Source of the DNA: Crocosphaera subtropica ATCC 51142
Lineage (GTDB): Bacteria > Cyanobacteriota > Cyanobacteriia > Cyanobacteriales > Microcystaceae
Length of the DNA: 32,000 nucleotides
NCBI RefSeq assembly: GCF_000017845.1
Contig: NC_010546.1
Span: 2,130,001 to 2,162,000 of the forward strand
Direction: 5' to 3'
This document shows positions 9,619 to 30,650 of this stretch, piece by piece. Numbering within the stretch: position 1 is the stretch's first letter; each line of letters opens with the position of its first letter. The notes beneath the pieces are model-generated. The model was not told the origin of the DNA. It did no database searches and saw only the letters and a program-made list of their open reading frames with translations. The translations under genes were made by a program, and so were the position numbers.

Positions 9619-9635
9619 AAAAGAATGAATTCAAA

Positions 9636-12870: not shown

Positions 12871-13115
12871 AAATCGCTCAAACCCTAACTAAGCCTGACT
12901 TGGCAAGGAATTCAGTCAAAAGCAAACTGTTAAAAACTAAAATATTTGCCCAATCAAGCTTTCAAGATGTTATTTCTAATAGTTTTACATGACAGGTTCG
13001 GTAGAACCAAAAAGACTTTTGTAAACTCTTAAAATCAAAATCGCTTATTATGACTCTACTCAAACAACTATTTATTCGCGGTTCCGCTAATCGTTATCTA
13101 TAAAAAATTCTAAAA

Positions 13116-13883
13116 ATGAATGTAGAAATGTCTCAATTTCTTATGGGAATAGGATCAGGATGTAATGTTAATTATAGCGGTGAAAAAATTGCTTTTGAAG
13201 TTTTGCGTTCAAAATCTAATGCACCTTATTGTATTTTTGATGTTGGAGCTAATCAAGGACAATTTTTACATCTTACCCTAGATAGTTTAGGAAAAGATAA
13301 TTTTAAAATTTATTGCTTTGAGCCTGGATTAAGAACATTTGAAATTCTCAAGCAAAATTCAAGACAAGATGAACGAGTTATTGTTAATAATTTGGGATTG
13401 GCACAAAAAAAGGGCGAAATGACACTATACTATGAGAAAGCTGGTTCAGGGCTCGCTTCCCTAGCAAAGAAAAAATTGGATCACTTTAACATATATTTTC
13501 AGCTAGAAGAAAACGTAAAAATTGAGACGATAGATAATTATTGTCATCAAAATTCTATTGATAAAATAGATTTATTAAAATTAGATATTGAGGGGCATGA
13601 ACTAGATTGCTTATTAGGCGCAAAAACTATGTTTGATCGCCAAGCTATTAAAATTGTAACCTTTGAATTTGGAGGATGTAATATCGATACCCGTTCCTTC
13701 TTCCAAGATTTTTATTACTTTTTTAAAGATGCTAAAATGGACATCTTTAGAATCACACCTTCGGGATATCTTCATCCTATTCGCTGCTATCAAGAAATCG
13801 ATGAGCAATTTAGAACCAGTAACTTTTTGGCTTGTTTTATAGATACTAAGAAAATAAATGAGAATAACTTTCATTATTCCTGA
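13116..13883 (+). CDS. FkbM-family SAM-dependent methyltransferase
   Basis: CIFDVGANQGQF and IDLLKLDIEGHELDCL, the typical FkbM-family pair of motifs. Confidence 0.8.
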   Translation: MNVEMSQFLMGIGSGCNVNYSGEKIAFEVLRSKSNAPYCIFDVGANQGQFLHLTLDSLGKDNFKIYCFEPGLRTFEILKQNSRQDERVIVNNLGLAQKKGEMTLYYEKAGSGLASLAKKKLDHFNIYFQLEENVKIETIDNYCHQNSIDKIDLLKLDIEGHELDCLLGAKTMFDRQAIKIVTFEFGGCNIDTRSFFQDFYYFFKDAKMDIFRITPSGYLHPIRCYQEIDEQFRTSNFLACFIDTKKINENNFHYS

Positions 13884-14964
13884 AGCCAATACCCGTGGTG
13901 GCATTCGAGTTGTGGCGATTTACGCAGAACAGTTGCAAAAACGAGGACATGATGTTTTAGTGGTGTCTCAACCCCATTCTATTCCTACGTTTCGGCAGCA
14001 ATTAAAGTCAGTTTTGAAAGGTAAAGGCCTTATTAAGCAGGAACAATCGTCTTTTTCCTATTTTGACACTTTGAATGTCCCTCATAAAATCCTTGAAAGC
14101 CGTCGTCCAGTTATTGATCAGGATATTCCTGATGGTGAGGTCGTAGTAGCAACTTGGTGGGAAACGGCTGAATGGGTTGCTAAATTGTCCCATAGTAAAG
14201 GTGCCAAAGCTTATTTTATTCAGCATCACGAAATACACCCTTACTTACCTAAAGATAGGGTAATAGCCACTTATTATTCACCTCTACATAAAATTGTTAT
14301 TGCTCGATGGCTTAAAGAGTTGATGAAAAACCAATACAATGATTTCTCTATTTCTCTAGTTCCCAATAGTGTTAATCTTGAGCAATTTCAAACAACGCCA
14401 CGACTGAAACAAGATCAACCTACTGTGGGCATGATGTCCTCAAAGCTTGACTGGAAAGGATGTGATATTGCTATTCAAGGAGTTATCCTAGCACGTCAAC
14501 AAATTTCTAACCTTAGTTTAGTCGCATTTGGCCAGGAACAACTGACCTCTGATCTAAATTTTCCTGATGATACTCAATATTTTCAACAACCTCCTCAACC
14601 TATGTTAAAAGACATTTACGCTAGATGTGATGCTTGGTTGTTCCCTAGTCGCTTAGAAGGCTTTGGCTTACCTATTCTTGAGGCAATGGCTTGTCGAACT
14701 CCTGTTATTGGCACTCCTGCTGGTGCCGCCCCTGAACTTATATCTCAAGGTGGTGGCATCTTAGTTAAACCAGAAGATCCTGAAGATATGGCAAAAGCGA
14801 TTATAGAAATAGTAAATATGTCTAATGACCAGTGGCAAGTGATGTCTAATGCAGCTTATCAAACAGCCACTAGCTACACTTGGGAAGATGCTACTGATCT
14901 CTTTGAAGAAGCTCTTTATACAGCAATAGAACGAACTAAAAATGGAGATTTAAAGGCTCAATAA
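13858..14964 (+). CDS. Family 4 glycosyltransferase (GT-B fold)
   Basis: MRITFIIPEANTRGGIRVV start and FPSRLEGFGLPILEAMACRTPVIGTPAGAAPELI (E-x7-E region). Overlaps the FkbM gene by 26 nt. Confidence 0.85.
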   Translation: MRITFIIPEANTRGGIRVVAIYAEQLQKRGHDVLVVSQPHSIPTFRQQLKSVLKGKGLIKQEQSSFSYFDTLNVPHKILESRRPVIDQDIPDGEVVVATWWETAEWVAKLSHSKGAKAYFIQHHEIHPYLPKDRVIATYYSPLHKIVIARWLKELMKNQYNDFSISLVPNSVNLEQFQTTPRLKQDQPTVGMMSSKLDWKGCDIAIQGVILARQQISNLSLVAFGQEQLTSDLNFPDDTQYFQQPPQPMLKDIYARCDAWLFPSRLEGFGLPILEAMACRTPVIGTPAGAAPELISQGGGILVKPEDPEDMAKAIIEIVNMSNDQWQVMSNAAYQTATSYTWEDATDLFEEALYTAIERTKNGDLKAQ

Positions 14965-15041
14965 GATTATTCTGTCAATATAATGTCTGATTAGCCTTTA
15001 CAATAGAGTGATATGCAAAAAATAATTAATTAAGTTAAAAC

Positions 15042-16019
15042 GTGGTTAAAGTATTAGTAACAGGGGCTGCTGGTTTTATTGGCTTTCATGTGAGTCAGAA
15101 ACTATTACATCAAGGAGAGACTATTCTTGGTATTGATAATCTTAATAGTTACTATGATGTTTTTCTAAAAAAAGCTCGTCTTAAACAGATAAAAACTTAC
15201 GAAAAATTTAGGTTTTATCAATTAGATATTGCTGACAGAAAAAGTATTTCTGAGTTATTTACTCAACATAATTTTGATTATGTTATCCACCTAGCTGCTC
15301 AAGCTGGCGTTCGTTACTCCTTGGAAAATCCTTATGCTTATGTTGATAGTAACCTAGTAGGATTTGTTAATATTCTTGAGGGATGTCGTCATCAAAACAT
15401 AAAACATTTAATGTATGCTTCATCTAGTTCAGTTTACGGAAAAAACAAGAAAATTCCTTTTTCAACTGATGATAGTGTTGATCATCCAGTTAGTTTATAT
15501 GCTGCTACCAAAAAAGCCAACGAATTAATGGCTCATACCTATAGTCATTTATACGGAATTCCCACAACAGGATTACGTTTTTTTACAGTTTATGGTCCCT
15601 GGGGTCGTCCCGATATGGCTTATTTTTTATTTACAAAAGCCATATTAGAAGAAAAACCAATCAAGGTATTTAATTATGGAAAAATGAAACGAGATTTTAC
15701 CTATATTGACGATATTGTAGAAGGAATTATTCATGTAATGAATAACATTCCTCAATCTGATAATTCATCGGTTCCGTATAAAGTTTATAATATTGGTAAT
15801 AATCAACCTGTAGAACTTGGTCACTTTATTGAAGTGCTAGAAGATTGCATTGGGAAAAAAGCTATTAAGGAGTTCCTTCCCATGCAACCAGGCGATGTCC
15901 CTATGACTTATGCTGATGTTGATGAGCTTATTAAAGATGTCGGTTTTCAACCTAATACTTCTTTGAAAACAGGATTAGAAAAATTTGTTAATTGGTATCG
16001 TGATTATTATCAATGCTAA
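15042..16019 (+). CDS. NAD-dependent nucleotide-sugar 4-epimerase (UDP-glucuronate 4-epimerase-like SDR)
   Basis: GTG start. Rossmann motif [13 protein letters not shown] and catalytic YAATKKANE (YxxxK). Length and the N-terminal [10 protein letters not shown] pattern are typical of UDP-GlcA/UDP-sugar 4-epimerases. Confidence 0.8.
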
Positions 16020-16052
16020 AAGTCGACAACTAAAAAATTAATAAGAAGAGTT

Positions 16053-17462
16053 ATGACTCCTCAAGCTCAATTGATTATGTTGGCGTGGTTGCCAATCGTT
16101 ATTTTTTTATTCTTACAATTTTCGCCGAGAAAAGCGGTTATTATTAGCTTTTTAGTAGCGTGGTTATTCTTACCCCAAAGGGCAGGTTTTATTATTCCAG
16201 GACTCCCAGACTATACCAGAATATCAGCTACTTGTTATAGTATCTTTTTTTTAAGTTTCTTCTTTGATTCTCAACGCTTCACACGCTTCAAATTAACATG
16301 GCTAGATTTACCCATGTTGATTTTATGTATTTGTCCTTTTTTCTCTTCTATAAGTAATGGTTTAGGCCCTTATGATGGACTATCTCAAACCCTTTCACAA
16401 ACAGTTACTTATGGTCTGCCTTATTTTATAGGTCGATTATATTTCAGTGATTTAGTTGGATTACGTCAACTCGCTATTAGTATTTTTATCAGTGGATTAA
16501 TTTATCTTCCTCTATGTTTATATGAAATTCGTATGAGTCCACAACTTCATAGAATGGTCTATGGTTATTTTGCTCATAGTTTTGCTCAAACCATTCGTTA
16601 TGGGGGATTTAGACCTACCGTTTTTATGCTGCACGGACTAGAAGTGGGGATGTGGATGATGGCTGTGACGCTTATTGGAATTTGGTTATGGCAAGCTAAA
16701 GTTATTAAAAAAGTAAGGGGAATCCCTATGCAGTGGATACTCGTAAGCCTACTTATAACGTTTGTTTTGATTAAGTCTACAGGAGCTTACGGTTATTTAG
16801 TCTTTGGCATTATCATTTTATTTATAGCTAAATGGTTTCGTAGTAATGTTCCTTTGTTGGTACTAATAATCAGCATCGCATTATATTTGGGTTTAGCATC
16901 AACTGGAAACTTTTCAACTAAAAATGCTGAACCCTTACTTACCACAATTTATAATACTGTGGGAGAAGATAGAGCAGGTTCGTTAGAGTATAGACTGGAT
17001 AATGAAGAAATACTGGTAGAAAAAGCACTGGAAAGACCCATATTTGGCTGGGGAGGTTGGGGTAGAAGTCGTGTTTATGATTATAACTGGGAAGGGGTGT
17101 TAGTTGATATTTCCACAACTGATAGTTTATGGATTATCATATATGGAGATCGTGGAATATTAGGATTAACCAGTTTATACGCTTCCTTTTTGCTTCCTGT
17201 ATTCATTTTTGCGACACGGCGTTATCCTCCTAAGTTTTGGTTTCATCCCCAAGTCGCACCGGCTGCTGTTTTATCTGTTGTGATAGTGCTTTATATGGTA
17301 GATAATACACTCAATGCCCTGCTTAATCCTATATTTATTGTAGTTAGCGGAGGTATGACAGGCTTAGTAGTACAAGTTCCTAAAAAAAGCAAAAGTGCTA
17401 AAAAGCTCAGTAGTAGATCAAACAAGATGCTACCAAAAACTTCCAGAAATACATCCTCTTGA
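16053..17462 (+). CDS. O-antigen ligase/polymerase family (Wzy_C-type) integral membrane protein
   Basis: 469 aa with more than 10 predicted TM segments and a large loop RAGSLEYRLDNEEILVEKALERPIFGWGGWG, characteristic of the WaaL/Wzy_C/ExoQ-like family. Basic C-terminal tail. Confidence 0.7.
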   Translation: MTPQAQLIMLAWLPIVIFLFLQFSPRKAVIISFLVAWLFLPQRAGFIIPGLPDYTRISATCYSIFFLSFFFDSQRFTRFKLTWLDLPMLILCICPFFSSISNGLGPYDGLSQTLSQTVTYGLPYFIGRLYFSDLVGLRQLAISIFISGLIYLPLCLYEIRMSPQLHRMVYGYFAHSFAQTIRYGGFRPTVFMLHGLEVGMWMMAVTLIGIWLWQAKVIKKVRGIPMQWILVSLLITFVLIKSTGAYGYLVFGIIILFIAKWFRSNVPLLVLIISIALYLGLASTGNFSTKNAEPLLTTIYNTVGEDRAGSLEYRLDNEEILVEKALERPIFGWGGWGRSRVYDYNWEGVLVDISTTDSLWIIIYGDRGILGLTSLYASFLLPVFIFATRRYPPKFWFHPQVAPAAVLSVVIVLYMVDNTLNALLNPIFIVVSGGMTGLVVQVPKKSKSAKKLSSRSNKMLPKTSRNTSS

Positions 17463-17504
17463 ATCAGAATGATTATAAAAACATAGATGTGCTAGTTTTT
17501 TTAT

Positions 17505-18008
17505 TTACGGACAGAATAGAGTGTCTTTAGTATTTCTGCCTGTAATTGGATTAGTTCCCTTTGCTATTTCACATAACTTCTTTTCGGTATCCAGACGCAG
17601 TAAAACGTCAGTAAAATCTGCCCCATCAATAACGGCTCCGTTAAACAAGGTATTAGTTGCAAATGCTCCTTCTAAAATAGCATTAGTAAAGTTAACGCGA
17701 ACTAATCTCGCTGACTCTAAATCAGCATATCTTAAGTCTGCCCCTTCAAAATTTGCTCCTTCTAAGTTAGAGGCAAAAAACCTTACCCCTTGTAAATTTG
17801 CATGACTAAAATTACAACCCCGTAAGTTAGCGTGTTCAAAGTCTGAATCTCGCAAATCTTGACTCGAAAAATCTCGCTCAACTAAGTTTTGTTTAGCATA
17901 ATTAACACTCCAAGCCGGAGCAATAGGCTGTAAAAAATAGATAATAGTCGATAATAGTAAGAGAACGCAAACTGTCAAGATAGTTTTATAATTGTTAATA
18001 TTAATCAT
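17505..18008 (-). CDS. Pentapeptide-repeat protein with an N-terminal signal/anchor (thylakoid-lumen or periplasmic type)
   Basis: Hydrophobic N-terminus ILTVCVLLLLSTIIYFL, followed by tandem A(N/D)LxG pentapeptides (ANLRGCNFSHANLQGVRFFASNLEGANFEGADLRYADLESARL). Confidence 0.85.
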   Translation of the reverse strand: MININNYKTILTVCVLLLLSTIIYFLQPIAPAWSVNYAKQNLVERDFSSQDLRDSDFEHANLRGCNFSHANLQGVRFFASNLEGANFEGADLRYADLESARLVRVNFTNAILEGAFATNTLFNGAVIDGADFTDVLLRLDTEKKLCEIAKGTNPITGRNTKDTLFCP

Positions 18009-18181
18009 AATTGATAATTTGACTTATCTTATACCAGTTCTCAGAAATAGTTAGATAGATTGCTTCGGATATTCTCAGTAAAAATCAAAGCTTACTGTTT
18101 ATATCACCCCTCGCAATGACCACATAAGTTTCTAATAACTTTCGAGAATTGGGATCACAATCACTATTCTACCGTAATTGG

Positions 18182-18610
18182 ATGACTTCTATCGGCAAAA
18201 TTGGTGAACAATTTGTGGCTCAATGGCTAATTTCTCAAAGTTGGCAAATTTTACATGAGCGTTGGCGATCGCCTTGGGGAGAAATTGATATTATTGCCCA
18301 ACATCATCATAGTAATACTATCATTTTTGTTGAAGTTAAAACCAGAAAAAGCAAAAACTGGGATCAATCTGGCATTTTAGCAGTCACCCCTCAAAAACAA
18401 GCTAAAATCACCCAGACAGCCTCTTATTTTTTAGGGGAATATCCCCAATTTTCTAACTTTATTTGTCGTTTTGATGTGGCTTTAGTTCACCATGAACCTT
18501 GTTCTCAGAATGATTATAAAGACTCTAATTTTGTTATTGAAATAGGAAAACCTATACAATGGCAAGGCTATCAACTTACTTTATTAGACTATATCGAAGC
18601 TGCTTTTTAG
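18182..18610 (+). CDS. yraN: YraN-family (UPF0102) predicted endonuclease
   Basis: IGEQFVAQWL..WQILHERWRSPWGEIDIIA..IIFVEVKTR is the typical YraN core. I prefer the ATG at 18182 over the track's TTG at 18149. Confidence 0.75.
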   Translation: MTSIGKIGEQFVAQWLISQSWQILHERWRSPWGEIDIIAQHHHSNTIIFVEVKTRKSKNWDQSGILAVTPQKQAKITQTASYFLGEYPQFSNFICRFDVALVHHEPCSQNDYKDSNFVIEIGKPIQWQGYQLTLLDYIEAAF

Positions 18611-18635
18611 TATGATACCAACCCTGTTTAATTGG

Positions 18636-18671
18636 AAAAAAGCAGTGATCCTTAAAATGAAGATCACTGCT
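18636..18671 (-). terminator. Rho-independent terminator ending the minus-strand V4R/ferredoxin/TPR operon
   Basis: A perfect 10-bp stem, AGCAGTGATC (18641-18650) with GATCACTGCT (18662-18671), and an 11-nt loop. On the minus strand the hairpin is followed by TTTTT (complement of 18636-18640). Confidence 0.7.
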
Positions 18672-18716
18672 AACAAGGAGAATTAAGACACCAAGTATGA
18701 AATAGGGTTGAAAGGT

Positions 18717-19664
18717 TTAACCAAGCACAGTAATGTTTTGCTCAGTGTCAAAATCATCATCGAAAAGACCACCAACAGAAATTAAATTAACTTGATTAGA
18801 TGAATTTTCTTTCATGATTGATTCGTCAGAAACCACTGAATCAGATTCTAGGTGATTAATAAGAGAATGACGAACTTCATAGAATTCCTTGCTAAGATTT
18901 CTTGCTTTTTCGTAGCTTTCAATATCTCCTTGTTCAAAGTAATATTTAGCAGCTAATCTTAGGTCTTCAACGGCTTGTTTTTTGTTCCCCATTTCTGCCA
19001 AAAGAATACCACGATTATGATAAGCTTTTGCATAAGTGGAGTTAAGATGTAGAGCTTCGGTATAGTCTTCTATTGCTCCTGTTTTATCTCCTAATTTTTG
19101 ATGACTTAATCCTCTTTCATAATAAGCATCAGCACCTTGAGGATTAATACGAATAACTTGGGAAACGTTTTCAATCTGTTGCAAAGTTTCAACAATCTCT
19201 TGAACTTTACTGAGTTGAGATTCTAAGGAATGAGTGAATTGATTTAATTGATCTTTTTCTACTTTTAATGTATTTAAAGATTCTTGATGATTTGTGATTT
19301 TTTCTGATAGTTCACTAACAACTATTTTGACTTTTTGATCTTGCTGATTTAAGTGTTCTTCACTGTCTTTTCTAAGCTGTTGAAATTGTTCAAGAATAAT
19401 AGACTGATTGTTATTTATTTGTTCGCTCATTTGGATGACAGCACTTTCTTGTAATTGAGCTAATTGTACTTTCAACTGGCGACGATTAGCAATTTGTAAA
19501 GCAACCGAAAAAGAAATAGGAATAGCAGCAAAAACAGCATTGCCAAAGAGAGAACCAACAGCACCACCAACTAAACCAATACCTGATAATAAATCAAAAA
19601 TATCAGAGCGGTTACTCTTATTATTTTCATTGGTTAATTCTTGTTTTTCTACTTGGGTTTCCAT
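18717..19664 (-). CDS. Membrane-anchored coiled-coil plus TPR-repeat protein (Slr0151-like position in the pap-type operon)
   Basis: TM segment GIGLVGGAVGSLFGNAVFAAIPISFSVAL, a long heptad-like region, then TPR units YYERGLSHQKLGDKTGAIEDYTEALHLNSTYAKAYHNRGILLAEMGNKKQAVEDL. Confidence 0.8.
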   Translation of the reverse strand: METQVEKQELTNENNKSNRSDIFDLLSGIGLVGGAVGSLFGNAVFAAIPISFSVALQIANRRQLKVQLAQLQESAVIQMSEQINNNQSIILEQFQQLRKDSEEHLNQQDQKVKIVVSELSEKITNHQESLNTLKVEKDQLNQFTHSLESQLSKVQEIVETLQQIENVSQVIRINPQGADAYYERGLSHQKLGDKTGAIEDYTEALHLNSTYAKAYHNRGILLAEMGNKKQAVEDLRLAAKYYFEQGDIESYEKARNLSKEFYEVRHSLINHLESDSVVSDESIMKENSSNQVNLISVGGLFDDDFDTEQNITVLG

Positions 19665-19715
19665 TATATTAAATCCTATTTAATGGTTTGATTAACGATG
19701 ATTAATGGTGAAAGA

Positions 19716-20036
19716 CTAAACTAAATATTCTTCTTCTTGATGGGTTAGAATTGTACAATCGGAAGTAGGAGAACAAGCACAAAGTAAAACATATCCTTGA
19801 TCTAATTCATCTGGTTTCAAAAAGGATTCAGCTTTTTCTGTTTGTTCAACTTTCCCAGAAATAACTTTACCTAAACAGTCAAAACAAGAAGCTGCACGAC
19901 AAGAACAAGGATGTTTAATCCCTTGGCTTTCAGCAATATCAAGAATATACTCATCTGAAGCAACTTTGATGGTTTTATTTAACTTGTGTTTAGGGTTAAC
20001 TAAGGTGACTTGAAACGAACTGTGATTTTGACTCAT
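19716..20036 (-). CDS. Plant-type [2Fe-2S] ferredoxin
   Basis: Ligand pattern C-x4-C-x2-C (CRAASCFDC) plus the downstream YVLLCACSPTSDC. GAGGA Shine-Dalgarno sequence 8 nt upstream of the ATG. Confidence 0.85.
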   Translation of the reverse strand: MSQNHSSFQVTLVNPKHKLNKTIKVASDEYILDIAESQGIKHPCSCRAASCFDCLGKVISGKVEQTEKAESFLKPDELDQGYVLLCACSPTSDCTILTHQEEEYLV

Positions 20037-20080
20037 GTTTAAATCCTCAAGGTTAAATTAATGAACAAATATTCAAAGGT

Positions 20081-20554
20081 TTATGCACCCAAAATTGTAC
20101 AATCAAGTTGGAAAGCTGGTAAGATAAATTTTGCTTCTTCAGGGGTCAAATATTGTTTAATGACCTCCTGAATAATAGGATAATGGGTCCGAACAAAACG
20201 CTCATATCCTACTGCACGAACGATAGTTTGTAGCCAAATTAAAAGACCATCTCGTAAGCGATCTAAATCGTTAATGACCATAGCAGCACTGGTATATTTA
20301 ATCGCTTGTTTGCGATCGCGTCGACAAATGTCTTGGCCGTGTTCATCCATTTTGTACAAACAATTATCTTTATTTAATTCGTGCATTTTGGCATCAACTT
20401 CTTGCAAGATTGCTTCTTCATTTGCCTTGATTTTTTCGTAGGTACTAATGCGAACATCTACAGATTCTAAATAATCTTCGATAAACTGTAGTTCAGTATC
20501 CGTTGCATAGCGACCATCGGTATCTAAACTTAACTTTGAAAATTGGGTTAACAT
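20081..20554 (-). CDS. Phycobiliprotein-like (globin-fold, PF00502-type) protein retaining the Cys-x-Arg-Asp bilin-site signature
   Basis: LSLDTDGRYATDTELQFIEDYL resembles phycobiliprotein N-termini. ICRRDRKQAIKYTSAAM aligns with the canonical CxRDxxxxLRY chromophore site. I prefer the ATG at 20554 (MLTQFSKL), preceded by GAGGAA, over the track's 20572. Confidence 0.75.
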   Translation of the reverse strand: MLTQFSKLSLDTDGRYATDTELQFIEDYLESVDVRISTYEKIKANEEAILQEVDAKMHELNKDNCLYKMDEHGQDICRRDRKQAIKYTSAAMVINDLDRLRDGLLIWLQTIVRAVGYERFVRTHYPIIQEVIKQYLTPEEAKFILPAFQLDCTILGA

Positions 20555-20591
20555 TGTGATTCCTCGGTACAAGAATTAGGGTTTAAAGGGA

Positions 20592-21074
20592 TTAAGCATC
20601 TTGAATTTTAGCCATGTATTCTGATACTTCAATTTGTGTATCTTTTAGTTGAGTAATCATGGAACGGGTGACTAATTTTCCTTCTTCAACTAAAATCGAA
20701 CCATTGATAGGATGGAGAATATTTTCTTTAGCTCGACTGCCAATTAAATCTTCAATATTTTCGATTTCACTGACATACATTCCTGAAGGAATTTCTACCA
20801 CGACTCCTTCCCCAATAACCCTTGCTTGACAAGCTAAACGAGAGCATTTATTAGCAGTGGTAATGACTTCCATTGTCCGTATTTCTCGGCGGTTAACGGG
20901 GGATAAACTATCCATTCCTTCCGTGATAAAAACATGGCAAGTGGAACACATTCCCCGCCCTCCGCACTCTTTCCAAACATTCAAGTCTTTTGCTAGTAAA
21001 CCGCTTAAAAGATTATCATTGGTTTGTATATCAATTTCTTGATTAATGGGGTCAAGTTTTACTTTTTTTGCCAT
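20592..21074 (-). CDS. Adrenodoxin/vertebrate-type [2Fe-2S] ferredoxin with a C-terminal extension of about 60 aa
   Basis: C-x5-C-x2-C (CGGRGMCSTCHV) plus CSRLACQARV. An extra tail runs from SEIENIEDLIGSRAKEN to the end. GGAGAA Shine-Dalgarno sequence upstream. Confidence 0.85.
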   Translation of the reverse strand: MAKKVKLDPINQEIDIQTNDNLLSGLLAKDLNVWKECGGRGMCSTCHVFITEGMDSLSPVNRREIRTMEVITTANKCSRLACQARVIGEGVVVEIPSGMYVSEIENIEDLIGSRAKENILHPINGSILVEEGKLVTRSMITQLKDTQIEVSEYMAKIQDA

Positions 21075-21096
21075 GTTTTAATTCTCCGTTTAATTA

Positions 21097-21768
21097 TTAA
21101 CCTTGAGATTGACTACCGCATAATAATTCCATGATTGTGGCATGATCATGTCCTTCTTCAAGCCACGCTTGGATAGGATTAATTCTATCAGCTAAACCGA
21201 TTACAAACATATTAGAATTGGCTCCCATCGATTCATAATTTGTTTGAATACAATGTAAATCTTCTCCTGTTAACTTACTGAAAAAAGCACTTAAAATACC
21301 TGCTTCTAGGAAACACATAGAACGTAAATTTTGTGGGGCAATTTGTGCAAAAGGAGAGTTGACTATTTGAGCAACTAAGAAACCATTTTGATAGTATTTT
21401 AAGTCAATATCTAAAGTTCCCCATCCATGAGTTTTCCAACATTCTTTTAAGCATTGGATGAATTGAATCATCTCCATTTCTGCCAGCGGTTTTCCGTAGT
21501 ATTCTCCTAATTCATCGGCAAATCTTTGATAGAAGTTTTTGCCCCACCAACGACCACAACTAAATAAAGCAACACTACTGCCTGCTCCTAATTCATCTTC
21601 TAAGGTGGCATAGAGTGCCTCTATTAAAGGTTGAGGTAACGCCAATAAACGGGAACCACTTCGGTTCTCTAATAAGCCAAATTCAAAGTCTCCTTGTAAA
21701 TAAGCATCATGGGAAAAATAATTACCTTTTAAAGAAGACTGTTCTACTAAATTGGCAACATCAATCAT
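21097..21768 (-). CDS. V4R (4-vinyl-reductase) domain protein, the paralogue lacking the Cys/Glu metal-site residues
   Basis: Collinear with the 22655..23380 product (GWGTLDID.. / GWGNWEVD..; AGILSAFFSKL.. / AGLLAGFFSNL..). The C-terminal segment reads CFLEAG..(x22)..Q-TN-Y-ESMGANS-N instead of C..E..C..C. Confidence 0.8.
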   Translation of the reverse strand: MIDVANLVEQSSLKGNYFSHDAYLQGDFEFGLLENRSGSRLLALPQPLIEALYATLEDELGAGSSVALFSCGRWWGKNFYQRFADELGEYYGKPLAEMEMIQFIQCLKECWKTHGWGTLDIDLKYYQNGFLVAQIVNSPFAQIAPQNLRSMCFLEAGILSAFFSKLTGEDLHCIQTNYESMGANSNMFVIGLADRINPIQAWLEEGHDHATIMELLCGSQSQG

Positions 21769-21773
21769 CTTAT

Positions 21774-22268
21774 TTATTCTCCTACCATTAAGGTTTCAGA
21801 TTGAGATTTTGTTTCTAATAGGGTAATTTTAGCTTGCTCTAAAAAGGGGTTTAAAAGTTGCATTTGCTCTGAGGAAAGCATTTCTTCTAATCCTTGTTTT
21901 AGATGCTCAAAAATATGAGTTTCTATGGTTACCATATCTTGAGCTTGAACAATATCTGTGAGCCATTCTAAAATGCGATGTCTGAAATAATCAGGGTTAT
22001 TTAATAACATAGCCATGGCAGCGTAACGCATCACTGAGATCCAATGTTTTAAGCCTTTTTGTAGCCGTTGATTATCCTCATCAGGAAACGTTTCTCCTAA
22101 ATTATCAGCAACAAATTGAAAAATAGAAATCTCTTGATCCCGTAATAATCGATAAATAGCTAAACGCTCTTTGAGACTATTTACACTATTTTTTAACATT
22201 ACTAAATCTGAAGATTGAAGATAATGATCTTCTGCTTCATAAAATAAAGTTTCAAAGTCTTTTTGCAT
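21774..22268 (-). CDS. Phycobiliprotein-like (globin-fold) protein lacking the bilin-attachment Cys
   Basis: KGLKHWISVMRYAAMAML aligns with the phycobiliprotein CLRDMEIILRYVTYAL region, but with Cys->Gly and Arg-Asp->Lys-His. Confidence 0.7.
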   Translation of the reverse strand: MQKDFETLFYEAEDHYLQSSDLVMLKNSVNSLKERLAIYRLLRDQEISIFQFVADNLGETFPDEDNQRLQKGLKHWISVMRYAAMAMLLNNPDYFRHRILEWLTDIVQAQDMVTIETHIFEHLKQGLEEMLSSEQMQLLNPFLEQAKITLLETKSQSETLMVGE

Positions 22269-22277
22269 GATCTTACC

Positions 22278-22658
22278 CTAAAATAAATCTGATAAGTTAT
22301 CTAAGTCTAGGTCTGTAGAAGATGAGTCGATTGAATTTCTAGATGAGGATGGTTTGGAGATTGGAGCAATCGTAGGATAACTTTTCCAAACCATTTCTTG
22401 AAAGAAATCCCTAACGGACAAACTCAGTAAAGATTCTTGAGAACGGTTAAGGGACTGGGATAAGGAAATAGTTTCTTGTATGCCTGTCCAATTGGATTGT
22501 AAGAGAAATCGTTGTAAATTTAAGGACAATAAAGATTCACTATTTTCGGTTCGATGGTTGGGATTTAAGACGGCTAATGTATCCGTTTCTCCTGTCCAAT
22601 TATAGGTACGAAAAAAATCATAAACACTAATACTAGACCATGTTTTTCTGCTCATCAT
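22278..22658 (-). CDS. Small repeat protein with three copies of about 35 aa (FF-x4-NW-x-G type motif) and an acidic C-terminal tail (Slr0145-like position)
   Basis: Repeats SVYDFFRTYNWTG / NLQRFLLQSNWTG / SVRDFFQEMVWKS, each followed by a Ser-rich spacer ending (E)SLLSL. Tail DLDLDNLSDLF. The start overlaps the upstream stop (ATGATG/TGA at 22653-22658). Confidence 0.65.
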   Translation of the reverse strand: MMSRKTWSSISVYDFFRTYNWTGETDTLAVLNPNHRTENSESLLSLNLQRFLLQSNWTGIQETISLSQSLNRSQESLLSLSVRDFFQEMVWKSYPTIAPISKPSSSRNSIDSSSTDLDLDNLSDLF

Positions 22659-23380
22659 TTAAGATACTCCCCATGATGTAAACGCTTTTCGATATCTTTA
22701 GCTAATGCGCCTTCATTTAACCAGAAAGTTGCAGCGTCAATACGGTCTTTTTTACCTACTAAAAACTTACAATAAGTTTCTCCCATAGCATAGCATTGAA
22801 TCTCAATGCAATTCAAATCTTTGTTGACTAAATTGCTAAAAAATCCAGCTAATAATCCTGCATAAATATGACAAACTGGTTTACCCACATCTCCTAATGT
22901 TCGAGCAACGGCAGAATCAAAAATATTGACAAACATAAAGCCATTTTTCTGCTCACTCATATCCACTTCCCAGTTGCCCCAACCTTGTGCTGTAAATGGC
23001 CACCACCAAGCTTCTAAAACATAGTTAAGGTTCATTTGATTAAGGGGTTTCTCATACTCATATTCAGAATAAAGCCATTGTTGAAAAAAGTTTGCGTCCC
23101 GTTTTCCCCATTCTTTACCAATGTTATAAGTAACAACGCCGGCAGCACTACCGATTTCTTCTTCTAGTCCTTCAATTAACCCTAAAATAAAATCTTCACT
23201 GGTAAGAATATTTCGAGATTCATTCCAATCAATAATGGTTCCTGTTTCTGTCTGAAAACAGAAGAAATCTTCTAAACCATAATGATGATGTCTTTTAGGA
23301 TATTTCTTTTTTAAACGATGCTCAAATTTTGTTAGTAACTCTTTCGTTTCTTGTTTGCTATCACTTGAGGTGAAAACCAT
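22655..23380 (-). CDS. V4R (4-vinyl-reductase) domain protein, the paralogue retaining a C-x22-E-x2-C-x7-C motif
   Basis: CHIYAGLLAGFFSNLVNKDLNCIEIQCYAMGETYCKFLVG. This is the first gene of the minus-strand operon. Confidence 0.8.
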   Translation of the reverse strand: MVFTSSDSKQETKELLTKFEHRLKKKYPKRHHHYGLEDFFCFQTETGTIIDWNESRNILTSEDFILGLIEGLEEEIGSAAGVVTYNIGKEWGKRDANFFQQWLYSEYEYEKPLNQMNLNYVLEAWWWPFTAQGWGNWEVDMSEQKNGFMFVNIFDSAVARTLGDVGKPVCHIYAGLLAGFFSNLVNKDLNCIEIQCYAMGETYCKFLVGKKDRIDAATFWLNEGALAKDIEKRLHHGEYLK

Positions 23381-23581
23381 CTTATATAAACCTCAATATT
23401 TTATCGAATGTGATTTCATTGTAGGGAGATAATTTAGGGCTTTCCTCTGTGGTTATGGGGAAATCACCAGGGTTTTTTACTTAAGTTTTAGTGGTTATAC
23501 GGACTCATCAGCAAAAAAGAGGAAAATCAGTTATAAAAAATAAACAAGATTACGGTTTGATAACAATTATTCAGAGTTATT

Positions 23582-23953
23582 ATGGAATTGTTTGAGCATA
23601 TAGAAGGAGCGTTGCAACATTGGGTGACACTGTTTCGCCTAATCTTAGAGTCTGTATCGGTGTTGTGTGTTGTCTTGGGGCTATTGTCAGGTATTCGTTG
23701 TGTAATCATGAATTTTCGCTTTCGCTCTTTTCCCTTTTTAGAAGTGCGTCTGCGCTTTGGTTCCTGGTTAGCGTTGGCCTTAGAGTTTCAACTGGGTTCA
23801 GATGTTCTCAGCACTACCATTGCACCGTCGTTTCAAGCGTTGGGAAAATTAGGAGCGATTGCGGTGATTCGGACTTTTTTGAACTATTTTTTGACACAAG
23901 AATTGGAAGCTGAACAACGCCTAAAAGAGCGAAAAAGAAGTTCAAATGTATAA
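23582..23953 (+). CDS. Small integral membrane protein (DUF1622-like)
   Basis: 123 aa with hydrophobic segments (VTLFRLILESVSVLCVVLGLL, FGSWLALALEFQLGSDVL, LGAIAVIRTFLNYFL). The family name is from memory. Confidence 0.6.
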   Translation: MELFEHIEGALQHWVTLFRLILESVSVLCVVLGLLSGIRCVIMNFRFRSFPFLEVRLRFGSWLALALEFQLGSDVLSTTIAPSFQALGKLGAIAVIRTFLNYFLTQELEAEQRLKERKRSSNV

Positions 23954-23989
23954 AATTAAAGAAGATACCAAGTTGTCTGGGATTTTATC

Positions 23990-24382
23990 ATGAACCCACC
24001 CCATCAATGGACAATTTATAAAGAGTTTCGTTTTGAAGCAGCCCACCGACTTCCCCATCATCAGGGTAAATGTAGTCGCCTTCATGGTCATAGTTGGGTA
24101 GGGCGAGTTTATGTGAGTCGAGATCGCCTTCACGAAACCGGGCCACAACAGGGGATGGTGATGGATTTTGGTGAGATTAGTGCTTATCTTGACCCTTTGG
24201 TGGAAAATTTCTTAGATCATTACTACTTGAATGAAACCACAGGGTTAGAAAGTCCTACCAGTGAAGCGATCGCACAATGGATCTTTGAAAAATTGGAAGC
24301 AGCGAAACTACCAGGATTGTGTATGGTAGAAATACGAGAAACTTGTACGTCTGGGGCCCAATATCGTCGCAGTAATGAATAA
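23990..24382 (+). CDS. queD: 6-carboxy-5,6,7,8-tetrahydropterin synthase / 6-pyruvoyl-tetrahydropterin synthase family
   Basis: FRFEAAHRLPHH..GKCSRLHGHSW (C-x3-HGH zinc/catalytic motif), 130 aa. Confidence 0.85.
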   Translation: MNPPHQWTIYKEFRFEAAHRLPHHQGKCSRLHGHSWVGRVYVSRDRLHETGPQQGMVMDFGEISAYLDPLVENFLDHYYLNETTGLESPTSEAIAQWIFEKLEAAKLPGLCMVEIRETCTSGAQYRRSNE

Positions 24383-24447
24383 ATTGTGCAAAGCTAATCC
24401 GTTGCTTACAATAAAGTCACAGAAAATTCTTACCCTGTCCATTTAAC

Positions 24448-25884
24448 ATGGAAATTCTTTGTACTCGTCCAGGATGTTCTCATCCTCAAAACAATTTTTC
24501 TGATCTTGATGATCCCTCAAAATTAAAAACGGTTCAACAAAAATACTGTACCAGTTGCGGAATGCCTCTAATTTTGGCAGGCCGTTATATACCGTCTAAG
24601 TTGTTGGGAAAAGGGGGGTTTGGGGCTGCGTTTTTAGCCAAAGATCGCTTTACTCCGACCGTGCGTTTATGTGTGGTCAAACAGTTTCAACCGGAAGGAA
24701 ACTTAAATACTCAAGCATTAGCGATCGCTCAAGAGTTGTTTGAACGAGAGGCGGTTATTTTAGAAGATTTAGGCAGTAAACACCCTCAAATTCCTCAATT
24801 ATATGCCTTTTTTCCCTTAGTGGTTTCTAATCAGATTACTAAAGAAGAAGAACAGTTTTTTTACTTAGTACAAGAACTCATTGATGGGGAAGATTTAGAA
24901 ACAGAATTAAAAAGAAAAGGAATTTTCAAAGAAAGTGAAGTAATAGAAGTTCTCCACGAAATTTTATTAGTGTTACAGTTTATTCACGATAATAATTGTA
25001 TTCACCGTGATATTAAACCCTCTAATATTATGAGGGATAAAAAAGGTCGTTTATATTTATTAGATTTTGGTGCAGTTAAACAAGTGGCTGCCAGTGCTGG
25101 TAATCCTCAAAAACGCTCAACAGGAATTTATTCGATGGGGTTTGCTCCCCCTGAACAAATGCAGGGATCGGCGGTTTATCCGGCAACAGATTTGTATGCT
25201 TTGGCTACCACCTGTTTAAATTTATTAACAGGAAAATCCCCAGAAGAGTTATATGATTCTTATAATAATTGTTGGAACTGGAAAACTCAGGTTACTAATA
25301 TTAGTGATGGGTTAGCTGATATTTTAGATCGATTATTGTTACCCATTCCAAGCGATCGTTATCAAAGTGCGTCTGAGGTTTTACAAGCGTTACATTCATC
25401 CCAATCTCAAGGGGTTTCTTCGAGTTCAAAAACATCAATCCAAACGTCACAAAATTCCCCTATTCCTTCTCCGTCGCCTCCACCTCAACCAACTCCTAGT
25501 CCCTCTTCTTCTCCCATTTCACCTAGTCTGAAAAAAAGTTTTTCTAGTGTTGATTTATTAATCTATTCAGGGTTTACAGGATTTGAAGGGGCAATCCTTA
25601 TTTTAGGGTTAAAAAACTTTCTGGCTGCTCCTGGAATCATCATCGGATGTATGATTATTGGTGGTTTGATTTATCTCCAATTCCGTCGTTTTCTGGATAA
25701 AAAAGACTTATTAATTATTGGAACATTTACAGTATTATTATTAATTGTTTTTCTATTTTTTGGTACTTTAGGATTTGAATCTGTTTCTTTTTTGTTAATA
25801 TCAGGATTAGTAGCAGGAGCAGGTTTAATAGCGGTTACATCTTTGTTTAAATTAATTTATCAACTGCTATCTAGTATTTTTTAA
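24448..25884 (+). CDS. Hanks-type Ser/Thr protein kinase with an N-terminal 4-Cys (zinc-ribbon-like) prefix, a Pro/Ser-rich linker and a C-terminal multi-TM region
   Basis: CTRPGC...CTSCG prefix. Kinase motifs GKGGFGAAFLA, CVVKQF, HRDIKPSNIM, LLDFG and FAPPE. Linker PSPSPPPQPTPSPSSSP. About 4 hydrophobic helices at the C-terminus. Confidence 0.85.
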   Translation: MEILCTRPGCSHPQNNFSDLDDPSKLKTVQQKYCTSCGMPLILAGRYIPSKLLGKGGFGAAFLAKDRFTPTVRLCVVKQFQPEGNLNTQALAIAQELFEREAVILEDLGSKHPQIPQLYAFFPLVVSNQITKEEEQFFYLVQELIDGEDLETELKRKGIFKESEVIEVLHEILLVLQFIHDNNCIHRDIKPSNIMRDKKGRLYLLDFGAVKQVAASAGNPQKRSTGIYSMGFAPPEQMQGSAVYPATDLYALATTCLNLLTGKSPEELYDSYNNCWNWKTQVTNISDGLADILDRLLLPIPSDRYQSASEVLQALHSSQSQGVSSSSKTSIQTSQNSPIPSPSPPPQPTPSPSSSPISPSLKKSFSSVDLLIYSGFTGFEGAILILGLKNFLAAPGIIIGCMIIGGLIYLQFRRFLDKKDLLIIGTFTVLLLIVFLFFGTLGFESVSFLLISGLVAGAGLIAVTSLFKLIYQLLSSIF

Positions 25885-25908: not shown

Positions 25909-27420
25909 ATGATTGGTAAAGTTTATTTAGTGGGTTCAGGAATCGGTAATATTAATTATTTAACCTTGAGAGGATACCATCTTCTATCTCAAGCTCAAGT
26001 CTTAATTTATGATGCTTTAGTTGATCAAAAATTACTGAACTTAGTACCTGAGAGTTGTCTAAAAATTGATGTTGGTAAAAGAGCAGGTCAACCCAGTCCT
26101 CAACAAAGTCAAATTAATAGTTTGCTGCTAAACTACTGTTTACAAGGAAAACAAGTTGTTAGATTAAAAAGTGGTGATCCTTTGATTTTTGGTCGTGTTA
26201 ATGAAGAAATTAAAGCATTAGAGGAAGCTAATTGTACTTATGAATTAGTCCCTGGAATTTCATCAGCTTTAGCTGCTCCTTTATTGACAGGAATACCCTT
26301 AACTGATAAAGAAGTTGGTCGATGTTTTACGGTTTTAACCGGACATCAACCCAACTTATTAAATTGGGAAGCCTTAGCAAAAATTGATACATTAGTTATT
26401 TTGATGGGAACAAGAAACCTTGATAAAATTGTTGAGAATTTAATCAGGAACGGGCGATCGCCTGATGAACCTATTGCTATTATTCGCAATAGTGGAAGTG
26501 AGCAAGAGAAAGTTTGGATAGGGACGTTAAAGACTATAATAGAACAAGTATCAGGATTCTTTTTATCTCCCGCAATTATTATTATTGGAAACGTCGTTAA
26601 TTTACGCTATATGTCTTCCTCTATAAGCCTTCCTTTAGCTCACAAAACTGTATTAATTACCCGTGCCAAAGAACAATCAAGTCAGTTTAGTAGCCTTTTA
26701 CAACAACAGGGGGCCAATACGCTAGAAATGCCGGCGTTAGAAATTTTGCCTCCCTCTTCTTGGGAACAATTGGACTTAGCTATTGAAGCTTTATCTTCTT
26801 TTGATTGGGTAATTTTCACCTCAGCAAATGGGGTTAAGTTCTTCTTTCAACGATTACAAGAATTAGGTCAAGATATTCGTGTTTTAGGTAAGATTAAAAT
26901 TGCTGTGGTGGGTAAAAAAACAGCTTCTTGTTTAAAGCAATATCATCTCACTCCTGATTTTATTCCTCCTAATTTTATTGCAGATTCATTAATTGATTAT
27001 TTTCCTGAGAGTTTAGGTCATCAAAAAATATTATTTCCCCGTGTAGAAACAGGAGGAAGAGATATTTTAGTTAAAGAGTTACAAAAACAAGAAGCTAATA
27101 TTGTTGAAGTTCCAGCTTATCAGTCAGGATGTCCTGAAACCATTAATTCTCAAGCATGGGAAGCCTTACAAAACAAACAAGTTAATATTATTACCTTTAC
27201 CAGTTCTAAAACCGTTAAAAACTTTTATACCTTGGTTCAAAAAGCCTTAAAAACTCAGAGCAAGTCAGAGATTTTATCTCTTTTAGATAATATTTGTCTG
27301 GCATCTATTGGTCCACAAACGTCAAAAACCTGTTATGACTTATTAGGAAGAGTGGATCTAGAGGCTGAAGAATATACCTTAGATGGGTTAACTCAAGGAT
27401 TAGTTAACTATTTTAGCTAA
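25909..27420 (+). CDS. cobA: Bifunctional uroporphyrinogen-III C-methyltransferase / uroporphyrinogen-III synthase (CobA-HemD fusion)
   Basis: The N-terminal half has VYLVGSGIGNINYLTLRG and LKSGDPLIFGR (SUMT). The C-terminal half of about 260 aa has the HemD-like repeated alpha/beta pattern (VLITRAKEQSS..., FTSANGVKFF, FTSSKTVKNF). Confidence 0.8.
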   Translation: MIGKVYLVGSGIGNINYLTLRGYHLLSQAQVLIYDALVDQKLLNLVPESCLKIDVGKRAGQPSPQQSQINSLLLNYCLQGKQVVRLKSGDPLIFGRVNEEIKALEEANCTYELVPGISSALAAPLLTGIPLTDKEVGRCFTVLTGHQPNLLNWEALAKIDTLVILMGTRNLDKIVENLIRNGRSPDEPIAIIRNSGSEQEKVWIGTLKTIIEQVSGFFLSPAIIIIGNVVNLRYMSSSISLPLAHKTVLITRAKEQSSQFSSLLQQQGANTLEMPALEILPPSSWEQLDLAIEALSSFDWVIFTSANGVKFFFQRLQELGQDIRVLGKIKIAVVGKKTASCLKQYHLTPDFIPPNFIADSLIDYFPESLGHQKILFPRVETGGRDILVKELQKQEANIVEVPAYQSGCPETINSQAWEALQNKQVNIITFTSSKTVKNFYTLVQKALKTQSKSEILSLLDNICLASIGPQTSKTCYDLLGRVDLEAEEYTLDGLTQGLVNYFS

Positions 27421-28997: not shown

Positions 28998-29993
28998 TTA
29001 CTTGTCTTTTAACCAACTAAACATAGCCCGTAAATCTTTGCCCACTTCTTCAATGGGGTGTTCCGCTTCTTGACGACGCATCGCCGTAAACCCTGGTTTA
29101 CCGGATTGATTTTCTAGAACAAATTCCCGTGCAAATTGACCCGATTGAATCTCTCTAAGAATTTGTTTCATTTCGGCGCGAGTTTCATCGGTAACAATCC
29201 GAGGACCTCTGGTTAAATCTCCATATTCTGCGGTATTGGAGATACTATCACGCATTTTCGCCAGTCCTCCTTCCACAATCAAGTCCACAATTAATTTGAC
29301 TTCGTGGAGGCATTCAAAATAAGCTAATTCGGGCTGATAACCGGCTGCAACGAGGGTTTCAAACCCTGATTTAATGAGTGCCGATAAACCACCACAGAGG
29401 ACTACCTGTTCCCCAAATAAGTCCGTTTCTGTCTCTTCTCTGAAGCTGGTTTCGAGAATACCGGCACGGGTTCCTCCAATTCCTTTAGCATAGGCCATAG
29501 CGCGATCACGGGCCTGTCCACTGGCATCTTGATAAACGGCGAATAAACAGGGAACCCCTTCCCCTTGTTCGTAGGTACGGCGCACTAGATGCCCTGGTCC
29601 TTTAGGGGCAACCATTATCACATCTACGGTTTCGGGGGGAACAATTTGACCAAAGTGAATGTTAAAACCGTGAGCAAAGGATAAAACCTTACCCTCTCTT
29701 AAATTGGGTTCGATATCTTCTTGATAAACCGCTTTTTGAACTTCATCGGGCAACAAGATCATGATCCAATCAGCAGCACTGGCAGCATCAGCCACATTCA
29801 TAACTTTTAGCCCTGCATCTTCGGCTTTTTGTCGTGATTTACTGCCTGGATACAGCCCCACTACCACATTGATGCCACTATCTTTTAAATTGAGGGCGTG
29901 AGCATGACCTTGAGAACCATAGCCAATAATGGCCACAGTTTTATCTGCTAATAGATCAAGGTTGGCATCTGCGTCGTAATACATCCGAGCCAT
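28998..29993 (-). CDS. ilvC: Ketol-acid reductoisomerase
   Basis: [34 protein letters not shown], 331 aa, class I KARI. Confidence 0.95.
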
Positions 29994-30117
29994 GAGGCTG
30001 TCTCCTAATTTTCTTACAAACTCTCCATTATATAATCTATAGGCCCTGGGGTGCGGATTTGGGGATTTTGTAATCTTTCTTTTGTCTTTGAAAATGAAGG
30101 AACTTTTGTTATTGCAA

Positions 30118-30585: not shown

Positions 30586-30650
30586 AGATTATCTATCCCA
30601 TAATCGTTGATCAAACAGAGGCTGTCTCCCTAGGGACAACCGTTCGGGCT

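Follow-up and report, generated by a model that had tools for sequence, protein, structure and literature searches.

What does a compact run of genes do that sets two V4R proteins and two phycobiliprotein-like globins beside two 2Fe-2S ferredoxins and a TPR protein, and does it amount to a new system or to a known one? This question was raised by eight neighbouring genes in a 32,000-nucleotide stretch of the Crocosphaera subtropica ATCC 51142 genome (Cyanothece ATCC 51142; contig NC_010546.1, positions 2,130,001 to 2,162,000; hereafter the window), which an earlier note, made from the sequence alone, had singled out as poorly understood. We regard it as virtually certain that the locus is the C. 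subtropica ortholog of the Synechocystis slr0144-slr0151 'pap' operon in a kinase-less eight-gene form. The operon has been published and the locus in this strain is already catalogued (PMC4284462), so that the window holds no new system and its description as fully uncharacterised was overstated. What the products do together is a harder matter. Our tentative proposal, which we would place at slightly less than an even chance, is that they form a soluble tetrapyrrole-binding, ferredoxin-coupled module tied to the assembly or repair of photosystem II (PSII); the identity of the locus and this mechanistic picture, taken together, carry a probability of roughly 0.55.

The identity was examined by BLASTP in both directions, locus against locus. 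The Synechocystis PCC 6803 locus was reached through a search with the first V4R protein (V4R-A), being absent from the loci of the pattern scan described below, and consists of consecutive genes of 243, 136, 170, 221, 160, 156, 103, 320 and 620/631 aa, the V4R-A ortholog among them carrying the database name '4-vinyl reductase'. All eight products of the window gave strict one-to-one reciprocal best matches with the slr0144-slr0151 products, at 30-71% identity (Table 1), and the resemblance to that cluster proposed in the earlier note thus held for 8 of 8 genes in the test chosen beforehand to challenge it. The paralogs were resolved as well (V4R-A from V4R-B, globin 1 from globin 2, Fed5 from Fed4), with cross-paralog matches being much weaker at 22-30%, and the V4R pair was assigned to the slr0144 and slr0147 groups both by reciprocal BLAST and by distinct conserved residues.

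The eight genes, their order and their orientation agree between the two operons (Wegener et al. 2008; TU2264, Kopf et al. 2014), which also share a 4-nt overlap between the V4R-A and slr0145-type genes, a downstream globin with CRRD and an upstream globin free of Cys. They differ in what follows the TPR gene, which in PCC 6803 is SpkG (slr0152), directly downstream, whereas here its place is taken by a terminator and a convergently oriented UPF0102 gene; the flanks differ completely in their genes. No difference was found from 'cluster e' of Cassier-Chauvat and Chauvat (2014; PMC4284462), which has the same kinase-less eight-gene composition in the same strain: among the variants distinguished there (e, e', e'' and e*), Cyanothece sp. 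ATCC 51142 has e, with no kinase, and PCC 6803 has e', with the kinase. The repeat protein is 100% identical to cce_2111, a hypothetical protein of C. subtropica ATCC 51142, and a literature search on locus tags cce_2107 to cce_2112 returned nothing. The nearest relatives among the species-representative genomes compared are Cyanothece sp. BG0011 and C. chwakensis CCY0110, with 63-98% protein identity across the cluster.

Table 1. Features of the locus in window coordinates. Identities are to the Synechocystis PCC 6803 ortholog, each a reciprocal best match (RBM); presence is counted over surveyed loci with enough flank only.
Feature	Coordinates	Strand	Length, family matches and remarks	Ortholog, identity	Presence
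V4R-A	22655..23380	-	241 aa; Pfam V4R E = 6.6e-23	Slr0144, 70%, RBM	26/31
Slr0145-type repeat protein	22278..22658	-	126 aa	Slr0145, 30%, RBM	21/31 (BLAST-detectable)
Upstream phycobiliprotein-like globin (globin 1), Cys-free	21774..22268	-	164 aa; Pfam Phycobilisome E = 1.7e-9	Slr0146, 52%, RBM	27/31
V4R-B	21097..21768	-	223 aa; Pfam V4R E = 1.8e-11	Slr0147, 64%, RBM	27/31
Fed5, adrenodoxin-like 2Fe-2S ferredoxin	20592..21074	-	160 aa; Pfam Fer2, fdx_isc-like	Slr0148, 71%, RBM	28/31
Downstream globin (globin 2), cyanobacterial BBAG-type	20081..20554	-	157 aa; Pfam Phycobilisome E = 1.7e-14	Slr0149, 45%, RBM	
Fed4, plant-type 2Fe-2S ferredoxin	19716..20036	-	106 aa; TIGR02008; optional cluster member	Slr0150, 58%, RBM	14/34
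TPR protein, predicted membrane-anchored	18717..19664	-	315 aa; TPR_1/TPR_2/TPR_11	Slr0151, 37%, RBM	31/34
Intrinsic terminator	18641..18671	-	12-bp stem, 7-nt loop, T-run; closes operon		
Divergent promoter / 5' region	23381..23581	-	201 bp; GAGG Shine-Dalgarno, TAcAAT box, two ATAACCAC elements		
Ser/Thr kinase	24448-25884	+	4-Cys N-terminal prefix (NF045510), C-terminal multi-transmembrane region		
CobA/HemD fusion	25909-27420	+	uroporphyrinogen-III methyltransferase + synthase; ~2.5 kb from cluster		

The layout of the cluster agrees with what had been described previously. Eight minus-strand open reading frames (ORFs) span 18717-23380 with coordinates identical to those given before, their domain order is confirmed by Pfam and NCBIfam, and the distances between them along the operon are -4, 9, 5, 22, 37, 44 and 51 nt, in keeping with the gaps of at most 51 nt, or overlaps, that had been noted. 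The start of the downstream globin is the ATG at 20554 in all homologs, a TTG at 20572 also being open. The clean terminator reported after the TPR gene is likewise there, 46 nt past the stop codon and with 5 G-C pairs in its stem; it is the sole strong terminator-like site in 18000-24600, and the other five such matches are weak stems within coding sequence, for a total of 6 against a shuffle expectation of 3.9 ± 2.0. This one strong terminator excepted, the counts of promoter-like and terminator-like sites across the region are close to the shuffle expectation. A single transcript, beginning at a promoter within the 201-bp divergent region and ending at the 18641-18671 terminator, most likely covers the whole operon.

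The survey of gene order across cyanobacteria that the earlier note had suggested was made with one peptide pattern, taken from the alignment of the downstream globin and scanned against species-representative genomes. It returned 37 loci and is biased toward relatives of this downstream globin; the loci come from Crocosphaera, Microcystaceae, a Synechocystis metagenome-assembled genome (MAG), Pannus, Prochloron and Acaryochloris, and from the Pleurocapsales (Stanieria-like, Myxosarcina, Waterburya and Chroococcopsis). The order V4R-A, repeat protein, globin 1, V4R-B, Fed5, globin 2, (Fed4), TPR, (kinase) is colinear in 35 of the 37, and because the same order recurs so widely the arrangement is not due to chance. 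Of 24 loci, 22 retain the 4-nt overlap of the V4R-A and repeat-protein genes, an arrangement suggesting that the two are translationally coupled. Because the presence counts differ by gene (Table 1), with a kinase directly downstream in 10 of 27 loci, the cluster is modular, having a near-constant core plus the TPR gene and, as optional members, Fed4 and the kinase. The eight genes do not, then, make up one self-contained unit.

How does this cluster come to be associated with photosynthesis? The link of the pap cluster to PSII, which the earlier note had mentioned, is borne out by the literature (PMC4853703; PMC9145668): the operon received the name pap, for PSII assembly proteins, from Wegener et al. 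(2008), and PSII intermediates are stabilised by its products. Efficient repair requires Slr0151, which interacts with both CP43 and D1, and expression of the cluster falls when iron is limiting and under oxidative stress (PMC4853703; PMC9145668). Synechocystis slr0144-slr0151 forms one transcriptional unit, TU2264 (PMC4195498), and the two ferredoxins, Fed4 (slr0150, plant-like) and Fed5 (slr0148, adrenodoxin-like), are both dispensable (PMC4284462).

The origin of the core has been addressed by Rockwell, Martin and Lagarias (2023; PMC10151467), who showed that the set of Fe-S protein, two V4R proteins and globin descends from pre-PcyA bilin-biosynthesis clusters. The pre-PcyA (pre-1/pre-3) BBAG clusters of heterotrophs share with the locus studied here one Fe-S protein, two V4R proteins (clades A and B) and one or two globins with CXRD. 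These ancestor-type clusters also encode heme oxygenase and pre-PcyA bilin reductases (PMC10151467), whereas no heme oxygenase or ferredoxin-dependent bilin reductase was found in or near the cluster here; compared with them, the Slr0145-type and TPR proteins are additions of the cyanobacterial version, as are Fed4 and SpkG in some lineages.

The two globins bear on this bilin ancestry in different ways. The downstream globin has C77-R-R-D80, identical to the CRRD of Slr0149, and HMMER places it on the C-I-R-D of ApcB3, the CXRD attachment motif. Across the Slr0149-type family the Asp is invariant and the Cys is present in 30 of 38 members. The upstream globin has no Cys at all, and its G-L-K-H aligns onto the C-L-R-D of ApcF; no member of its Slr0146-type family has CXRD, and 28 of 31 have His in the Asp column. 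The cluster thus appears, from these residues, to encode one attachment-competent and one non-attaching globin, an arrangement that may be reminiscent of an alpha/beta pair. According to PMC10151467, BBAG-1 and BBAG-3 bind bilins covalently via CXRD, independently of a lyase and with weak fluorescence, and some cyanobacterial BBAGs, Slr0149 for example, have CXRD. Through its orthology to slr0149 the downstream globin would fall within the cyanobacterial BBAG clade. The earlier statement that no cofactor, substrate or reaction had been assigned is on this account partly outdated, given the bilin ancestry and the binding by related globins (PMC10151467), and it still stands for the reaction.

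Given database names such as 'allophycocyanin' and 'phycobilisome protein', it could be supposed that these are ordinary light-harvesting proteins, the globins being allophycocyanin subunits and the cluster a part of phycobilisome biogenesis. Both globins do match Pfam PF00502 and share the globin-like fold of the allophycocyanin and phycocyanin subunits, and the C-x-R-D of the downstream globin is in register with ApcB. However, their scores lie far below the family cutoffs, with 32.4 and 16.4 bits against a cutoff of 228, and 18.7 bits against 270, in the NCBIfam allophycocyanin models (TIGR01337 / NF058521), and their best phycobiliprotein match in the PDB is weak (E = 3.6e-5). One of the two is Cys-free and without the motif, and BBAGs form a clade apart from the light-harvesting phycobiliproteins, with low fluorescence and lyase-independent attachment (PMC10151467). 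We consider the light-harvesting explanation effectively refuted.

The two V4R proteins also differ from one another. In V4R-A, which has a mean column identity of 77% over 36 sequences and invariant WWWPF and GWGNW blocks, residues C170, E193, C196 and C204 align column by column with the Cys/Glu/Cys/Cys of PoxR and MopR; the Zn site of DmpR is also Cys/Glu/Cys/Cys (PMC7264223). This predicted Zn-type ligand set is invariant in 29 of 29 orthologs. The corresponding predicted site is lost in V4R-B, where 31 of 31 orthologs have Gln for the Glu and Asn for the last Cys while the first Cys varies, and the V4R-B clade has conserved residues of its own (C71, C110, C178 and H209). Residue 178 is Tyr in the V4R-B of the window and Cys in 29 of 31 orthologs, the closest relatives included.

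An AlphaFold2 model of V4R-A has a mean predicted local distance difference test score (pLDDT) of 69; residues 51-240 average 65-89 by block, and the N-terminal 48 residues are poorly defined. Its best fold matches in the PDB are the MopR/PoxR/DmpR sensor domains, the archaeal V4R protein MJ1460 and TRAPP Bet3/TPC6, with heme-binding H-NOX domains matching more weakly (E = 3.5e-4 to 5e-2 and template modelling (TM) scores 0.4-0.6 over these matches); V4R-B found no match among PDB sequences even at E = 10. Relative to the MopR/PoxR/DmpR sensor domains, V4R-A aligns over the V4R core with the Zn ligands in register, and the model superposes, but identity is 16-19% and there is no AAA+ or DNA-binding output domain; V4R-B differs from them further in having no Zn site. 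The families matched all hold a buried hydrophobic ligand, members of the Bet3 family form heterodimers and the phenol sensors form intertwined dimers (PMC7264223). Because the fold matches hold hydrophobic ligands and form dimers, a V4R-A/V4R-B heterodimer with a ligand pocket is plausible at the level of these models.

If such a pocket exists, its ligand could be a closed rather than a linear tetrapyrrole. The V4R proteins would then act like BchJ in chaperoning chlorophyll or its precursors, and the globins and ferredoxins would aid delivery or recycling to D1/CP43 during PSII repair. The V4R domain takes its name from BchJ, of which V4R-A gives a weak match, and the weak similarity of the V4R-A model to the heme-binding H-NOX fold points in the same direction, as do the contacts of Slr0151 with the chlorophyll-binding proteins D1 and CP43 (PMC4853703) and the recently reported ability of pre-PcyA enzymes to bind cyclic tetrapyrroles (PMC13446030). 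Yet the BchJ match (TIGR02019) reaches 20.6 bits against a cutoff of 74.3, with no match for V4R-B, the motif of the downstream globin is that for linear tetrapyrroles, and the ancestral clusters encode heme oxygenase and bilin reductases and not chlorophyll enzymes. A chlorophyll carrier therefore seems to us decidedly improbable.

The four Cys ligands are intact in both ferredoxins. Fed4 is a plant-type ferredoxin (TIGR02008, 109 bits against a cutoff of 81), and Fed5 has a Fer2 domain with an ISC/adrenodoxin-like best NCBIfam match (fdx_isc, 54.6 bits). The C-x5-C-x2-C...C ligands of Fed5 and a C-terminal block are conserved in at least 90% of 34 sequences. This block belongs to a C-terminal extension of about 60 residues (~100-160), conserved across cyanobacteria as E.LIG.RA...ILHP..G..LV...KL.TR..I..L, for which no Pfam or NCBIfam family was matched and which might serve Fed5 for docking to another protein of the cluster. 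The phosphorylated residues of Fed5, which do not enter our argument, are presumably T18 and T72; both would be conserved here. The earlier note had also connected SpkG and Slr0151 with the phosphorylation of Fed5, a connection that is confirmed in PMC11863333, according to which a spkG mutant loses Fed5 phosphorylation (Angeleri et al. 2018).

The regulation of Fed5, together with the relatives of V4R-A, makes it worth asking whether the cluster is a redox or iron-status signalling module and not a pigment handler. The V4R proteins would in that case sense small molecules or thiol redox state, in the manner of MopR/DmpR and MsvR, and Fed5 would report the state of the ferredoxin pool; lineages with SpkG would tune Fed5 by phosphorylation, and photosystem biogenesis would be adjusted through the TPR protein. 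The nearest solved relatives of V4R-A are indeed sensor domains, and in NCBIfam it scores best against the V4R portion of the redox regulator MsvR. Iron limitation, oxidative stress, light level and 3-(3,4-dichlorophenyl)-1,1-dimethylurea (DCMU) all elicit a response of the Synechocystis operon (PMC4853703; PMC4284462), Fed5 phosphorylation depends on SpkG (PMC11863333), and true SpkG orthologs are linked to the cluster in 10 of 27 loci. On the other hand, Pfam and NCBIfam detect no DNA-binding or other output domain in any of the eight proteins, the Zn-type site of V4R-A is structural in the MopR/DmpR family, and a signalling role leaves both the bilin-cluster ancestry and the two globins, one of them with a bilin-attachment motif, unexplained. 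We think a signalling module unlikely, while giving it some weight.

The two remaining products can be described more briefly. The 126-aa protein previously said to contain three repeats does so, with S-[LI]-S-[VL]-x-x-F-[FL]-x3-[NV]-W-x-[GS] motifs at residues 8-23, 44-59 and 78-93, variable linkers between them and an invariant N-L-S-x-L-F at the C-terminus. It matched no Pfam or NCBIfam family, and all its named homologs are 'hypothetical'. Its AlphaFold2 model is of low confidence (pLDDT 49.5) and has short helices at the motifs only, which fits a flexible multi-motif adaptor, although the shallow alignment may also depress the confidence of the model. The TPR protein has a hydrophobic N-terminal stretch at about residues 22-58 (~35 residues), as in Slr0151, and Pfam places TPR_1/TPR_2/TPR_11 at residues 178-245.

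Taking these observations together, we return to the tetrapyrrole-binding, ferredoxin-coupled module as our preferred reading and suggest how it might work. The six upstream genes would be the cyanobacterial descendant of a pre-PcyA bilin cluster from which heme oxygenase and bilin reductase have been lost. The Slr0149-type globin would bind a bilin covalently at Cys77 of its CRRD, most likely phycocyanobilin in a cyanobacterium, with the Cys-free Slr0146-type globin as its non-attaching partner subunit. V4R-A, with its predicted Zn site, and V4R-B, without one, may form a Bet3-like heterodimer whose buried hydrophobic pocket holds or passes the tetrapyrrole, and Fed5 may serve as the dedicated one-electron carrier of the module. 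The Slr0145-type protein could hold the subunits together through its three F-F/W motifs and C-terminal LSDLF. Fed4 and the TPR protein would be lineage-variable additions that plug this soluble module into photosynthesis, Fed4 by linking it to the general ferredoxin pool and the membrane-anchored TPR protein by docking it at thylakoid sites of PSII assembly and repair (D1/CP43). Overall, the module would be a dispensable accessory for sensing or handling tetrapyrrole and redox state, and one that improves PSII assembly and repair.

Several points weigh against this proposal and account for the caution with which we word it. The pap cluster has been linked to photosystem I too (PMC4853703), and Rockwell et al. 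consider that the PSII phenotypes may stem from slr0150-slr0152 and not from the core (PMC10151467). The bilin-binding assays in the available text of that paper cover BBAG-1, -2 and -3 of heterotrophs and no cyanobacterial BBAG, and the Cys is absent in 8 of 38 members of the Slr0149 family, so that covalent attachment is not universal. The AlphaFold2 models are mediocre, at pLDDT 69 for V4R-A and 49.5 for the repeat protein, as are TM scores of 0.4-0.6 in the fold search. The V4R-A/V4R-B heterodimer, the donation of electrons by Fed5 to its partners and the adaptor role of the Slr0145-type protein are all things that we infer, and co-transcription is known from Synechocystis and is read here from gene spacing and the terminator. 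The authors of PMC10151467 themselves state that the functions of BBAGs have yet to be established and need not be conserved, and a 2026 follow-up characterises the reductases and not the V4R or Fe-S proteins (PMC13446030).

A bolder version would make the core a cryptic ferredoxin-driven machine for processing tetrapyrroles instead of a passive binder. Here, the V4R heterodimer, supplied with electrons by Fed5, would alter a bilin, or a product of chlorophyll or heme breakdown set free in D1 turnover, or alternatively would transfer it to or from the CRRD globin. The Slr0146-type globin, which has the His but no Cys, would carry a further tetrapyrrole, bound non-covalently and possibly heme. 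We offer this as a long shot. If it were true, it would be the first enzymatic or transfer role for V4R proteins and would give the pap cluster a defined reaction in PSII repair.

Whatever its mechanism, the pap/BBAG cluster is among the more widely conserved cyanobacterial operons without an assigned reaction, and it joins two questions, that of how PSII is assembled and repaired and that of how bilin biosynthesis and the phycobiliproteins originated. The cluster offers several handles for experiments in its globin pair with and without the attachment motif, its V4R pair with and without the Zn site and its adaptor-like repeat protein. The locus described here also presents the operon in a form that naturally lacks the kinase, in a diazotroph that is well characterised both genetically and physiologically. 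These paralog asymmetries and the kinase-less variant could help to separate the core function from the contributions of Fed4, the TPR protein and SpkG.

Although the operon is kinase-less, the window does contain a Ser/Thr kinase (Table 1), divergently oriented, upstream of the operon and separated from it by DUF1622 and QueD genes. We rejected it as SpkG, since it is 24.6% identical over the catalytic domain only and has a C-terminal multi-transmembrane region that is absent from SpkG; residues 301-631 of SpkG gave no tblastn match anywhere in the 32-kb window. By comparison, in 13 other loci the kinase that immediately follows the TPR gene shows 34-54% identity to SpkG; 9 of the 13 are full-length and align over 88-98% of it, and the other 4 cover only 40-66%. 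Judged from the 32-kb window, then, no SpkG ortholog is linked to the operon in this lineage. The kinase-QueD-DUF1622 block beside the operon is conserved in the Crocosphaera clade only (L007, L008, L010 and L013). A functional link of CobA/HemD, QueD or DUF1622 to the operon was considered and set aside as local synteny, their linkage being confined to the same clade, and the proximity of CobA/HemD to a tetrapyrrole-associated cluster is probably a coincidence.

Individual loci in the survey depart from the common pattern. The upstream half of the cluster in C. watsonii WH 8501 (L011, 3335-11828) is fragmented over about 5 kb into a V4R-A fragment, a repeat-protein fragment and two globin-1 pieces, and its TPR gene is split, which looks like disruption by insertions. 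V4R-A of C. chwakensis CCY0110 lies in two overlapping ORFs (L008, 7178-7902), and this split could be a frameshift or an error of the draft assembly. Acaryochloris marina MBIC11017 has two complete copies of the cluster, both without Fed4 (L036 and L037). Chroococcopsis and an uncultured relative (L026 and L027) have an extra, orphan downstream globin with no other cluster genes nearby, and in one MAG (L015, 10001-11142) the downstream globin is tandemly duplicated inside the cluster.

In the 201-bp region upstream of V4R-A, the GAGG Shine-Dalgarno sequence lies at 23391-23394 and the -10-like box TAcAAT, at 23418-23423, is invariant across 7 Crocosphaera-clade genomes; a sigma-70 consensus scan found no full promoter on the operon strand of this region. 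Two copies of ATAACCAC stand at -76 (23449-23456) and -118 (23491-23498) from the V4R-A start, and their 42-nt spacing is kept in the 7 Crocosphaera-clade genomes, the most divergent one included. A search upstream of V4R-A in 29 other loci found the element in the Crocosphaera clade only. We therefore rejected ATAACCAC as a general regulatory element of the operon; the pair could be the site of a lineage-specific regulator or could merely reflect shared ancestry. An Rfam scan of the whole window for riboswitches, small RNAs and rRNA gave nothing at gathering thresholds.

The cluster has a GC content of 0.32-0.37, like its surroundings. Downstream of the operon, at about 4200-17500 on the plus strand, lies an apparently unrelated polysaccharide or O-antigen-type cluster with genes for an ABC-2 permease, a Wzt-like ATPase, a polysaccharide pyruvyl transferase, a methyltransferase, a GT4 glycosyltransferase, an epimerase and a Wzy_C ligase-like protein. 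At the other end of the window, over 29000-32000, the GC content rises from about 0.35 to about 0.45 across the housekeeping genes for ketol-acid reductoisomerase, a biotin carboxyl carrier-like protein, elongation factor P (EF-P) and a methyltransferase.

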